Positions 12,448 to 32,000 of a stretch of DNA of 32,000 nt are shown here, in pieces; position 1 is the stretch's first letter, and each line of letters opens with the position of its first letter. Source of the DNA: Halomicronema hongdechloris C2206. GTDB lineage: Bacteria > Cyanobacteriota > Cyanobacteriia > Phormidesmidales > Phormidesmidaceae. The notes beneath the pieces were generated by a model. It was not told the origin of the DNA. It saw only the letters and a list, made by a program, of their open reading frames with translations, and ran no database searches. The stretch lies in the NCBI RefSeq assembly GCF_002075285.3, contig NZ_CP021983.2, positions 4,170,001 to 4,202,000 of the forward strand, given 5' to 3'. The translations under genes were made by a program, and so were the position numbers.

Positions 12448-12885
12448 ATGGCTAATCTCAACCTAACGCTGAATGTTCGGGTTGTTGGAGGTCCTCAGGT
12501 TTCAGTTGCTCGCACTAAAGTCATTGAAGCCTACGACAAAATTGATGTTGTGCTCAATCCAGGGGATACCGATATCTCGGTTGAAATCCAACCTGGCGCA
12601 GCGACTCAGGTAGGGTTTTTGCTAATCAAGTCAAGTCTGTACAGTCAGGCAGACCCTGATCCAACCATCACGTATACCGTGAGTGATGGGGCGACGGATT
12701 TTCCGGCGGTGGGGGCAGGGCTAGAACTCGATGATCCCCACATTTACATCGGTGGTGCCCTGGCTGTCTTTGGGTTGGCCCCCAGAATTTTGCGGTTCAC
12801 CAATGCCTATGCGGCGGATCCGGCGAATCCTGCCATTAACCGAGCCATGATTGAAATTTTTGTGGGTCGTGATGCAACGCCCTAA
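12448..12885 (+). CDS. hypothetical protein, first gene of the contractile-injection-system operon
   Basis: 145-aa ORF with an AAGAAGG RBS 7 nt upstream. It is beta-rich and soluble-looking (MANLNLTLNVRVVGGPQVSVARTKVIEAYDKIDVV...). I recognise no family. Confidence 0.6.
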   Translation: MANLNLTLNVRVVGGPQVSVARTKVIEAYDKIDVVLNPGDTDISVEIQPGAATQVGFLLIKSSLYSQADPDPTITYTVSDGATDFPAVGAGLELDDPHIYIGGALAVFGLAPRILRFTNAYAADPANPAINRAMIEIFVGRDATP

Positions 12886-12939
12886 AGCTTCAGCATCTGT
12901 GAGCCCCTTGAATACCCCATTCTGTGAGAGGACTTGACT

Positions 12940-29768: not shown

Positions 29769-29769
29769 G

Positions 29770-32000
29770 ATGACCCACTCTAGCCAGCCGAAACGGGTGC
29801 CCCTGTACGACCGTCTGCCCCAGATTTACCACGTACGCGATGCCGAGCAATCGCCGCCGGGGCAGCTGCGGCACTATTTGGCGGTGGTGGAAGCGGTGTT
29901 TGGTGAGATCCACGCCAACATCGAGGCCCTCTATCACGATTTCTTCATCGACACCTGCGACGAGTGGGTGATTCCCTACATCGCCGATTTACTGGGCACG
30001 ACCCACCTCAAGGGGGAGGCCCGCACCCTGCGCGCCGATGTGGCCGACACCATTGCCCTACGGCGACGTAAGGGCACCTTGGATGCGATCGCATGGTTGA
30101 CCTACAACCTCAGCGGCTGGGGCGTCCACGGGGTGGAGCTACGGGAAAATCTGCTCTGGACCCAGCACCTAAACCACCAACGGCCCGATGCCGGCGGTGT
30201 CCCCCCCTATAGCCTGCCTGGGGTCAGCCGCTTTACTCCCATTCGCGGCGGCACCGTACCGGTGCGGGATGCCGCCATGCTCAGCCTGGTCAACACCCCC
30301 TTCGATCCTTTCGGCCACACGGTGGATGTAAAACCGCCCGGCCTCGACGCGGTGCGCTACAACCTGCCCAACCTGGCCATTTTCCTCTGGCGGCTGGCGG
30401 CCTATCGGGTCACCGTGTCACCCCCCGTCATCCGGGACGTGATCGACAACAGCGCCGCCGGAACCGGAGCCAGCTTTATCCTGCGAGTGGATGTCCATCC
30501 CCTGGGGCAGCCGCTGCGGCTGTTTAACACCAGCCGCTTCGACCCCAACCAGAGGCCACCGGTGGTATCGCAGTTGGATCAGACCCCTGGCCCCATCCCC
30601 CCAGCCCGCTTGAACCAAGGCTCCGCCGCCGGGGTCCCTGAGGCCTATGTGCAGGTGGACACCTACGACCCAGCCAGCCTCAGCAATCCCGATCTAGACA
30701 CCGTCGACCGCCTCGACATCGGTGCGGTGGGCCTGCAGCTGCATCTGCCCGAACCCGAGTTTACCAACCGCTCCTGGCCCCGCTCAGAGCCGCCGCCACC
30801 GCCTGCCTGGACCCTGCGAGGAGATAATCTCTGCGCCTGGGAAACCGGCCTGGCTCGCCCCCTGCAGAATAACGAGATCGCCGTCGATCCGGTGATTGGC
30901 CGCCTGCTGATCGGGGTGGAGACCGCCGCCGCGGCCGCCGCCCTGGAGACGGGATTGCTGCTGACCCACACCTATGGGGCGGTGGGACCAGTGGGGGCCC
31001 ACCCGCTGTCCCGCCAGCCGCTGCCGGACACCTGGCAAGGGGAGACGGTGGCGGTGCGTCCGGTGAATTTTCACAGTGACCCCAATGGCTTGCAGGCGGC
31101 CCTACATGATATCCAGACCGCCACCGCCCCCATCGTCATCGAGATTCGAGACAGCATGGTGCATGAGCTGGATTTAGGGGCCATTGCATCCCCCCTCGAC
31201 GAAGCCGGGGGCTTCAACCTGCGCCTCAACCGCAGCCTGATCATCCGGGCCGCCAGCGGTCAGCGCCCCCTGATTCGCCTCAGCCAACCGTTGCGATTTC
31301 GCCCCAGCCGAGTCTTCGATCCCGATCCCGAGGTGCAAACTCAGTTGGATGCGGTGATGGACCGCCTCACCGTGCGCCTAGAAGGACTCTATCTGACCCG
31401 AGCAGCGGGCTTCCCCGCCGGGGACCCCCTGATTGCCCGAGCCGCCCTGCACAGCCTGGAACTGGTGGACTGCATCCTGGATCCCGGTGGTTTCCAGCAA
31501 CTGGACGGCAGTCGTGCCCCCATCCGCCCAGCCTTAGAACTAGCCAATTTCTATGGCTTTCCCCCCGGCTCCGACCAGGAGGTCGCCTTCAACCAAACCC
31601 CCGAAATTCACCTGCAGCGCACCATCAGCGGCCCCTTAACCATCGACACTGACTACCGCCTCTTTCTCACCCACGCCCTGCTCGATGCCGGCAAGGGAGT
31701 GGGCGATGCCCCCGATGACAGCTTTGCCGTGGCCGGGCCGGGGTCCCTACCAGAGGGACGCTGGGGGCCGCCTACCGTCGTGAATGGCCTCACCGTTTTC
31801 GGCCGCATGCGGGTAGATGAGATTCGCGGCCAGGGAGGCATCTGGGTCCATGCCCTAGAGGTATTGCACAACCAAACCGGCTGCCTCAAGTTCAGCTATT
31901 TCTCTGGCCAGGGGGACCGATTGCCCCAGCACCATGGCTGTGTCACTGGCCCGGAGGCGCGGCTGCGCTTCATCAGTGAGATCTGCGGCCAACCCGCCTA
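29770..32000 (+). CDS. phage tail protein with P2 gpI-like (TIGR02242-type) N-terminal domain and long C-terminal extension; partial, continues beyond the window
   Basis: MTHSSQPKRVPLYDRLPQIYHVRDAEQSPPGQLRHYLAVVEAVFGEIHANIEALYHDFFIDTCDEWVIPYIADLLGT...IALRRRKGT. The frame is open for all 743 codons to position 32000. Confidence 0.7.
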   Translation, partial: MTHSSQPKRVPLYDRLPQIYHVRDAEQSPPGQLRHYLAVVEAVFGEIHANIEALYHDFFIDTCDEWVIPYIADLLGTTHLKGEARTLRADVADTIALRRRKGTLDAIAWLTYNLSGWGVHGVELRENLLWTQHLNHQRPDAGGVPPYSLPGVSRFTPIRGGTVPVRDAAMLSLVNTPFDPFGHTVDVKPPGLDAVRYNLPNLAIFLWRLAAYRVTVSPPVIRDVIDNSAAGTGASFILRVDVHPLGQPLRLFNTSRFDPNQRPPVVSQLDQTPGPIPPARLNQGSAAGVPEAYVQVDTYDPASLSNPDLDTVDRLDIGAVGLQLHLPEPEFTNRSWPRSEPPPPPAWTLRGDNLCAWETGLARPLQNNEIAVDPVIGRLLIGVETAAAAAALETGLLLTHTYGAVGPVGAHPLSRQPLPDTWQGETVAVRPVNFHSDPNGLQAALHDIQTATAPIVIEIRDSMVHELDLGAIASPLDEAGGFNLRLNRSLIIRAASGQRPLIRLSQPLRFRPSRVFDPDPEVQTQLDAVMDRLTVRLEGLYLTRAAGFPAGDPLIARAALHSLELVDCILDPGGFQQLDGSRAPIRPALELANFYGFPPGSDQEVAFNQTPEIHLQRTISGPLTIDTDYRLFLTHALLDAGKGVGDAPDDSFAVAGPGSLPEGRWGPPTVVNGLTVFGRMRVDEIRGQGGIWVHALEVLHNQTGCLKFSYFSGQGDRLPQHHGCVTGPEARLRFISEICGQPA

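Follow-up and report, generated by a model that had tools for sequence, protein, structure and literature searches.

A probable contractile injection system operon containing a stretch of likely assembly errors in the chromosome of Halomicronema hongdechloris C2206

The 32,000-nt stretch of the Halomicronema hongdechloris C2206 chromosome analysed here (the window) contains, at positions 12448-32000, 17 co-directional and mostly overlapping contractile-tail genes (Table 1). The initial annotation had described 16 joined genes. Their common direction and their junctions were found as described, but 17 genes were counted and 10 of these are interrupted in the sequence as written. The list of junctions was exact, with ATGA at 18107, 24241 and 27138, TGATG ending at 15941 and 23386, TAATG at 23912, and an 8-nt overlap formed by the ATG at 20266 and the ATPase stop codon at 20271-20273. 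The gene boundaries given with them hold only after frame correction. The region is very probably a genuine operon for a contractile injection system (CIS) of the Afp/PVC-related ('eCIS') kind, and the insertions and deletions (indels) that interrupt its genes from 15957 to 27523 most likely arose in the assembly.

Pfam scans were run on stop-masked translations of the three forward frames of 15900-27500 and on the flanking intact open reading frames (ORFs). The intact 548-aa ORF of the sheath matched Phage_sheath_1 (PF04984, E 2.8e-12) and Phage_sheath_1C (PF17482, E 3.2e-11). The tube protein matched Phage_T4_gp19 (PF06841, E 3e-44) and TIGR02241 (E 3e-43), with weaker matches to CIS1/CIS5 families. 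The cap matched Pvc16_N/DUF4255 (PF14065, E 1.6e-21) in an alignment running across an apparent stop at 17224, and the next gene, which overlaps the cap stop, encodes an AAA+ ATPase with its AAA match (PF00004, E 1.2e-27) at the C-terminal end. All four components, including the dedicated ATPase beside the cap, had been named in the initial annotation. A Pvc16_N cap with an adjacent Afp15-like AAA+ ATPase is the hallmark pair of eCIS-type loci. The parts by which such loci are recognized were all found, namely sheath, gp19 tube, cap, ATPase and a baseplate set of spike, gp25 and Baseplate_J proteins, and they were found without head or lysis genes.

For comparison 80 sheath-anchored loci were gathered from species-representative genomes, with a best sheath identity of 64%. 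Relatives of the sheath occurred on at least 588 stretches across bacterial phyla. In the majority of the 80 loci, genes for a tube-adjacent protein with four invariant cysteines (Cys4), for the cap and for the ATPase were again found downstream of the sheath gene. The closest intact references were scaffold JH976537.1 of Nodosilinea nodulosa PCC 7104 (L081) and the 110-kb JGI metagenome contig Ga0254891_1000185 (L084). Sheath, tube, gp25, J, gpI and gpV families are common to P2- and T4-like tails as well, and could have come from a prophage tail module or an R-type tailocin. A Pvc16_N cap with an adjoining AAA+ ATPase is present, however, and the flanks are ordinary chromosomal genes. As the initial annotation had stated, no capsid, portal, terminase, lysis or integrase gene was detected in the three-frame scans of 15900-27500 and the flanking ORFs, which cover the strain's own sequence up to 32000; none of them was among the genes called in the two intact relatives up to 10 kb on either side of the anchor gene either. 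A phage origin is therefore extremely unlikely. A type VI secretion system (T6SS) is very unlikely as well. It is favoured by the best solved sheath by E-value, 9ezm, which comes from a haloarchaeal CIS that is membrane-bound and works in a T6SS-like manner. The sheath is nevertheless of the Phage_sheath_1 type, the cap and the Afp15-like ATPase are eCIS hallmarks, and TssB/C, TssK, TssM and ClpV families were missing from the scans of the three forward frames and of the intact ORFs.

Table 1. Genes of the contractile injection system operon and the probable low-accuracy patch. Frameshifts were counted by frameshift-aware protein-to-DNA alignment against the Nodosilinea proteins; non-3n, length not a multiple of three.
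Feature	Coordinates	Strand	State in the deposited sequence	Frameshifts
Accessory protein, 145 aa (XM38_039730)	12448..12885	+	Open; ORF intact	
Contractile sheath, 548 aa	12934..14580	+	Open; ORF intact; true start may be ATG 12940	
Inner tube protein, 175 aa (XM38_039750)	14594..15121	+	Open; intact	
Conserved Cys4 protein, 288 aa	15075..15941	+	Open; intact	
Proline-rich protein, ~309 aa	15941..16870	+	Broken; reading frame interrupted	
Tube/sheath cap, Afp16/Pvc16-like, ~405 aa	16879..18110	+	Broken by 9 insertions	8
Afp15-like AAA+ ATPase, ~719 aa	18107..20273	+	Broken into at least 4 frames	11
87-aa protein	20266..20528	+	Broken; 2-nt insertion at 20510	1
Baseplate/tube-adaptor-like protein, 229 aa	20548..21243	+	Broken by +2 and +1 insertions	2
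86-aa protein (LysM/gpX in the initial annotation)	21389..21649	+	Open; ORF intact	
Baseplate hub, gp27-like N-terminal part of VgrG/Cis8, 372 aa	22269..23386	+	Broken; one 1-nt deletion at 23241	1
Spike, gpV/gp5 OB-fold, 175 aa	23386..23912	+	Broken; one 1-nt deletion at 23613	1
PAAR-like tip, DUF4280-like, 110 aa (XM38_039910)	23912..24244	+	Open; compensating indel pair 24138/24149	
gp25/gpW-like baseplate wedge protein, 126 aa	24241..24622	+	Broken; 5 indels	3
Baseplate J-like wedge protein, ~828 aa	24625..27141	+	Broken; 38 non-3n indels, most damaged gene	29
TIGR02243-like second baseplate protein, ~870 aa	27138..29768	+	Broken; 11 indels in first ~130 codons; compensating pair 28911/28933	10
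gpI-like baseplate protein	29770..32000	+	Open; intact to window end (743 of ~800 codons)	
Probable low-accuracy sequence patch	15957..27523	.	99 non-3n indels in 11.6 kb, DNA alignment to L084	

Between about 15.9 and 27.5 kb the ORF map was a patchwork of short forward ORFs in all three frames, several of them parted by a single stop. The reading frames could not be assigned from a GC3 frame plot at this base composition. When the intact ORFs of the relatives were matched to the window, the frame changed within individual genes. The metagenome contig was 89-92% identical in DNA to positions 14354-32000, with the same gene order from the tube gene through the gpI-like gene, and the Nodosilinea locus had the same order from the cap gene through the gpI-like gene. 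All of their genes are open, whereas the window contains 99 frame-breaking indels. Alignment to the contig gave 113 gaps, and the 99 non-3n gaps among them within 15957-27523 correspond to 8.6 per kb. In coding DNA there were 92 such gaps, 75 of them insertions and 17 deletions in the window, and most single-base insertions (51 of 62) extended a run of the same base. Against the Nodosilinea proteins 66 frameshifts were counted, and the corrected proteins were 68-89% identical over their full length. The flanks showed two non-3n indels in 5.1 kb aligned, compared with about 44 expected. Positions 14354-15956 had none, and to the right of 27523 (aligned at 27524-27670 and 28647-32000, with 27671-28646 giving no alignment to the contig at the DNA level) only the compensating pair 28911/28933 was found. 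The initial annotation had spoken of a complete contractile-tail set. The parts are indeed present, but the statement holds only once the approximately 92 coding frame-breaking indels, which were not flagged, are removed.

The apparent in-frame stops at 17224, 19147, 20827 and 24466 were by-products of clustered 1-nt insertions; the stop at 17224, for example, is flanked by +1 insertions at 17210, 17222 and 17245. Stop-codon reassignment was considered for these single stops and rejected, as each falls in a short segment read out of frame between insertions. The compensating pairs in the PAAR-like gene (24138/24149) and the TIGR02243-like gene (28911/28933) garble about 4 and about 7 codons, so that wrong residues are probable even in the open deposited proteins XM38_039910 and XM38_039970.

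The selection values were determined from codon alignments in the reading frames of the metagenome contig with the indels removed. The dN/dS ratios of the broken genes of recognisable family ranged from 0.06 to 0.21 (cap 0.21, ATPase 0.14, hub 0.15, spike 0.06, gp25 0.08, Baseplate J-like 0.17, TIGR02243-like 0.12), and the unbroken genes gave 0.02 (tube), 0.21 (Cys4) and 0.15 (gpI-like). Only the proline-rich gene had a high ratio of 0.62. Mismatches to the contig amounted to 9.2% in the patch and to 9.8% and 8.0% in the flanks. No genuine nonsense substitution relative to the contig was found in the patch. The sole candidate, TAG at 19444, was rejected as an alignment artefact; it lies beside a T inserted in a T-run and vanishes when this base is removed. 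The baseplate J protein, repaired with the Nodosilinea protein as a guide (77% identical), was 88% identical over 100% of the length to an independent intact protein of 828 aa (P0121).

The frameshifts could also be real in the DNA of the organism, in which case the locus would be a decayed relic and the injection system non-functional. In the deposited sequence ten genes are interrupted and annotated as fragments, short homopolymers are the preferred sites of the indels, as they are in replication slippage, and the comparison included no independent sequence of the strain. Decay should nevertheless have left other traces. Bacterial gene decay is deletion-biased, whereas insertions exceed deletions here by about 4:1. 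In mutation-accumulation studies base substitutions are about tenfold more common than indels, so about 100 natural indels should be accompanied by hundreds of extra substitutions and tens of stop codons. The approximately 92 coding indels, however, came with zero genuine nonsense substitutions, and neither dN/dS nor the mismatch rate was higher than in the intact flanking genes. The damage also has sharp edges inside the operon: the flanking CIS genes have only the two indels in 5.1 kb, and the upstream genes, over 12 kb, show none that could be detected. Decay is thus an unlikely explanation.

The C2206 genome was assembled with MIRA as a hybrid of 17x 454, 14x PacBio RS and 41x 36-bp Solexa reads (PMC6416890). 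Its contigs were joined manually with PacBio reads, and chimeric PacBio reads and some poorly covered regions were noted (PMC6416890). Taken with the indel pattern and the selection values, this hybrid assembly leads us to read the breaks as assembly error, and the stretch would rest mostly on early PacBio or 454 reads. The record as a whole is not prone to error, since nine upstream genes have full-length domain matches. The nature of the breaks as found in the sequence makes it very likely that 15957-27523 is a low-accuracy assembly patch and not a case of pseudogenisation, and the operon in the living organism is probably intact.

Several points weigh against a genuine operon with an artefactual patch. 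Natural slippage, too, favours homopolymers. The protein collection held no intact copy 99-100% identical to the most broken gene, the best being the 88% identical protein of a related organism, and the comparison included neither reads of the strain nor a second assembly, so the artefact is inferred and not demonstrated. A failure of 454 and Solexa coverage over just 11.6 kb is unexplained. Fibres and effectors would lie outside the window. For the hub, tube adaptor, cap, Baseplate_J-like and gpI-like proteins, sequence matches to solved CIS structures were absent or marginal, so several role assignments rest on position and weak profiles.

The baseplate families were scored on indel-corrected translations unless otherwise stated. 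In the raw sequence the spike match was split at position 53/54 of the Phage_base_V profile between frames 1 and 3. After correction Phage_base_V (PF04717) matched over its full length (E 3e-24), and GPW_gp25 (PF04965, E 3.3e-12) and Baseplate_J (PF04865, E 2.6e-5, above the cut-off) were recovered for two wedge proteins. The calls of a gpV spike, a gp25/gpW protein and a baseplate J protein were in this way borne out. Other earlier calls stood in part. The tip protein gave a DUF4280 match below the cut-off (E 1.3e-3), and the UniRef name of the deposited protein is DUF4280 domain-containing protein. The TIGR02243 match (E 1.4e-38) lay under the equivalog cut-off; this gene is deposited as a 777-aa fragment, XM38_039970 (ORF 27435-29765, 100% identical), and the sole and weak PDB match of its product was to the Baseplate J-like chain 9gtp_1K of the Streptomyces system CISSc. 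For the gpI-like protein the matches to Tail_P2_I and TIGR02242 were borderline; it was 80% identical to its Nodosilinea orthologue without any frameshift.

The gpD hub call was recovered in another form. Phage_GPD was not matched, but the orthologue profile matched residues 34-342 of the CIS VgrG chain 9rce_F (E 7e-13) and also 7aef_q, 7b5h_AJ and 9gtr_q. These are the gp27-like N-terminal halves of VgrG/Cis8 chains from the CIS of Salmonella salamae, Algoriphagus, Anabaena and Streptomyces. Cis8 is thus split in this lineage into a 372-aa hub and a 175-aa spike. Single-sequence PDB searches with the Baseplate_J-like, hub, tube adaptor, cap and gpI-like proteins gave no match. The tightly packed operon is interrupted at 21650-22268 by 619 nt without a convincing ORF, which separate the 86-aa gene from the hub gene; the corresponding gap measures 446 nt in the metagenome contig and 134 nt in Nodosilinea.

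The corrected 229-aa protein was 80% identical to the Nodosilinea orthologue and had no Pfam match. Its profile gave only a marginal PDB match, to the 'peptidoglycan-binding protein' of the S. salamae CIS (9rce_H, E 1.4e-3). The 86-aa protein was 77% identical to its Nodosilinea orthologue, and the LysM domain assigned to it earlier was not significant (E 0.075). Directly upstream of its gene, at 21312-21386, lies a heptamer tandem repeat (CTCCGTC-like, about 10 copies), which is 34 nt longer than in the metagenome contig and therefore length-variable. Relative to the contig and Nodosilinea, expansions of repeats were seen at 21297-21380 and at 20110-20150. The latter is an octamer repeat, CCCACTCC, of about 4 copies within the C-terminal part of the ATPase gene, and against the contig it is an in-frame expansion of 24 nt that encodes a Pro/Ser/Leu-rich insert. 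The ATPase fragments are deposited as two coding sequences, XM38_039820 and XM38_039840. In the raw sequence the insertion at 20510 fuses the 87-aa gene with the next gene; the orthologues at the same position have 100 aa in Nodosilinea and 87 aa in the contig. For the cap, 326 of 405 residues were identical to the Nodosilinea protein after correction, and the nine insertions relative to the contig were of 1-2 nt.

Among the remaining genes, the Cys4 gene follows the tube gene directly in 72 of 81 related loci and is a near-universal part of this CIS lineage. Its product has the invariant residues C114, C119, C221 and C224, arranged in two CxxxxC/CxxC-type pairs. Matches to T4_baseplate (PF12322) and DUF6760 were both below threshold, and its profile had no meaningful match and no solved relative in the PDB. 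The proline-rich gene begins in frame 2, continues in frame 1 and returns to frame 2, with 7 non-3n indels relative to the contig. Its protein is poorly conserved except for the C-terminus, which is kept in the Nodosilinea locus and in locus L040. From its position before the cap gene one might guess at a length-determining, tape-measure-like role. The 145-aa protein had no Pfam or NCBIfam match; homologues immediately precede the sheath gene in 7 of 80 related loci and also in Nodosilinea. Its AlphaFold model was an all-beta sandwich (pLDDT 90.8), for which a fold search of the PDB returned no significant match and only jelly-roll look-alikes of low TM score.

The best PDB matches of the sheath were 9ezm, 8bky/9gtp and 8bl4/9gts. 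By these PDB matches the sheath groups with the lineage-II systems of Streptomyces (CISSc) and haloarchaea and not with the thylakoid-anchored CIS (tCIS) of Anabaena. The sheaths of Afp, PVC, AlgoCIS and Anabaena (All3325) matched in the C-terminal domain only, at about E 9e-41 to 1e-47. The Streptomyces systems belong to subclade IId and the haloarchaeal ones to IIa, and the other characterised systems, the cyanobacterial one included, make up two clades that are close relatives, for which subclades Ia and Ib are shown (PMC10066040, PMC11566945). The lineage-II relatives are cytoplasmic in Streptomyces and membrane-bound in haloarchaea (PMC10066040, PMC12237407, PMC11566945).

The sheath of the Streptomyces coelicolor CISSc (dbeCIS IId; PDB 8bky, 9gtp; PMC10066040, PMC12237407) aligned over the full length, residues 9-543, with E 4e-74, and so did the CISSc-related 8bl4. 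Both CISSc and the window have a cap and an ATPase, and the TIGR02243-like protein matches the CISSc Baseplate J-like chain. The similarity is nevertheless distant. CISSc has one Cis8, whereas the window has separate hub and spike genes, and in place of the CisA adaptor of CISSc the relatives of the window have DUF6519/beta-helix, OmpA-like and eCIS_core proteins downstream. The CIS of Halogeometricum borinquense, also described as an archaeal T6SS (IIa; 9ezm; PMC11566945), gave the best sheath E-value (1.1e-74), with the match in two stretches. That system is plasmid-borne in an archaeal host and fires while membrane-anchored via Hbor_38620; nothing comparable was seen in the window. Afp of Serratia and PVC of Photorhabdus (6rao, 6j0b) share the Pvc16_N cap, Afp15-like ATPase, gp25, J, spike and PAAR-like tip, but they have three sheath genes instead of one long gene, and their sheaths matched in the C-terminal domain only (E 1e-46 to 2e-47). 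Their gene order also differs from that of the window, in which sheath and tube come first, cap and ATPase later and the baseplate genes last. An Afp13-type fibre gene was not present within the window.

The initial annotation had called the locus eCIS/tCIS type, and had thereby linked it to the Anabaena tCIS, which sits on thylakoid stacks and is exposed when cells lyse into ghost cells. The host is likewise a filamentous cyanobacterium with thylakoids, and the tCIS of Anabaena sp. PCC 7120 (7b5h; PMC8894136) has the same general parts, namely sheath, tube, cap, ATPase and equivalents of Cis7-12. The hub profile weakly matched Anabaena All3320 (E 7.7e-4). However, All3325 matched the window sheath only at residues 359-541 of the C-terminal domain (E 9e-41), and the window sheath resembles lineage-II sheaths much more closely, along its entire length. 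No 7b5h chain was matched by the Baseplate_J-like, TIGR02243-like or gpI-like protein. Anchoring of the tCIS requires an extension of Cis12, a C-terminal transmembrane helix of Cis13 and a Cis19 crown (PMC8894136), to none of which the baseplate proteins of the window showed similarity, and the relatives of the window have DUF6519/beta-helix and OmpA-like genes downstream instead. On the genes up to 32000 the tCIS assignment was therefore not upheld, and a thylakoid-anchored system of this type is unlikely.

In both the metagenome contig and Nodosilinea the gpI-like gene is followed by a gene for a DUF6519/beta-helix protein of about 1235 aa and then by one for a CarboxypepD_reg/OmpA-like protein. 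The next gene in Nodosilinea encodes a 603-aa protein with eCIS_core (PF13699) and PG_binding_1 domains, and the contig locus ends inside the OmpA-like gene. By synteny these DUF6519/beta-helix, OmpA-like and eCIS_core genes are likely fibre, envelope-binding and effector candidates of H. hongdechloris, which fits the earlier proposal that fibres and effectors lie beyond 32000. The mode of assembly is read from the protein families. The baseplate, built from the gp25, Baseplate_J-like, TIGR02243-like and gpI-like proteins, would assemble around the gp27-like hub and the gpV-like spike, which would be tipped by the PAAR/DUF4280-like protein. The gp19-type tube would polymerise on this baseplate, be wrapped by the sheath and be ended by the Pvc16_N cap, and the AAA+ ATPase may help in assembly or in cargo loading. 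Contraction of the sheath would push the spike and tube across a membrane together with any cargo.

The locus is an ordinary CIS operon of a widespread and catalogued family, the sheath relatives of which span Cyanobacteria, Chloroflexota, Acidobacteriota, Proteobacteria and Actinomycetota, and its lineage is not yet characterised in cyanobacteria. A more far-reaching reading, which is possible but doubtful, is that the locus and its relatives form a structurally uncharacterised branch of lineage II with its own conserved parts and a mode of action perhaps unlike that of the Anabaena tCIS and of released Afp/PVC particles. Such parts may include the Cys4 protein, the split hub and spike, the small beta-sandwich protein before the sheath and, downstream, the DUF6519/beta-helix, OmpA-like and eCIS_core plus PG-binding proteins. 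If this branch exists, its mode in a phototroph with thylakoids may, for example, be envelope-directed or, by analogy with Streptomyces, a stress-triggered intracellular firing. Cyanobacteria have at least two unrelated CIS lineages, and findings on the Anabaena tCIS therefore should not be transferred to such loci without testing. The public C2206 record very probably contains an 11.6-kb low-accuracy stretch that gives rise to artefactual entries such as XM38_039820, 039840, 039880, 039930 and 039970 and their WP_ counterparts, and automated surveys could overlook this CIS or score it as decayed. A correction of the record, with caution over equating the locus with the Anabaena tCIS, is the most useful outcome. 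An exact look-up identified XM38_039730, 039750, 039820, 039880, 039910 and 039930 among the ORFs of the window, with 039840 as a start-site variant. A literature search found no paper that ties Halomicronema to contractile injection systems, and proteomic detection of the locus did not occur in the searched supplement text of the genome paper.

The genes upstream of 12448 were chromosomal, as had been stated, and nine of them each had a full-length domain match. They encode Uma2, mannose-1-phosphate guanylyltransferase-type (ManC), LytR_cpsA_psr (LCP), DUF1818, peptidase M15 and DNA_alkylation proteins, two AbrB-like proteins and a saccharopine dehydrogenase. A tRNA-Pro(GGG) gene at 6690-6765, also upstream of the operon, adjoins a gene at 5449-6630 for a 393-aa protein in which three tandem repeats of about 95 aa precede a Peptidase_M15 domain at the C-terminus. 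The AbrB-like regulator genes (7737-8123 and 10752-11138) are paralogous, encode 128 aa each, share about 80% DNA identity over 300 nt and lie 3 kb apart just upstream of the operon. A small, secreted-looking protein is encoded on the minus strand at 10066-10531; its signal peptide precedes about six 'DFDxLRxENLDKD' repeats in 45-nt units. In one copy a TAG (10304-10306) stands in frame at a position that Arg or Gln (CAG) occupies in other copies. The site is not part of the indel patch, and the TAG reflects either a true truncation or an erroneous base. The roughly 1.3 kb that separate the second AbrB-like gene from the first of the CIS genes (11139-12447) had no convincing gene and no Rfam family match. 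Promoter and terminator scans of 11100-13000 and 21200-22300 gave background levels only. Two terminator-like hairpins, at 11165-11187 on the plus strand and 11229-11247 on the minus strand, face each other within the stretch between the AbrB-like and CIS genes.

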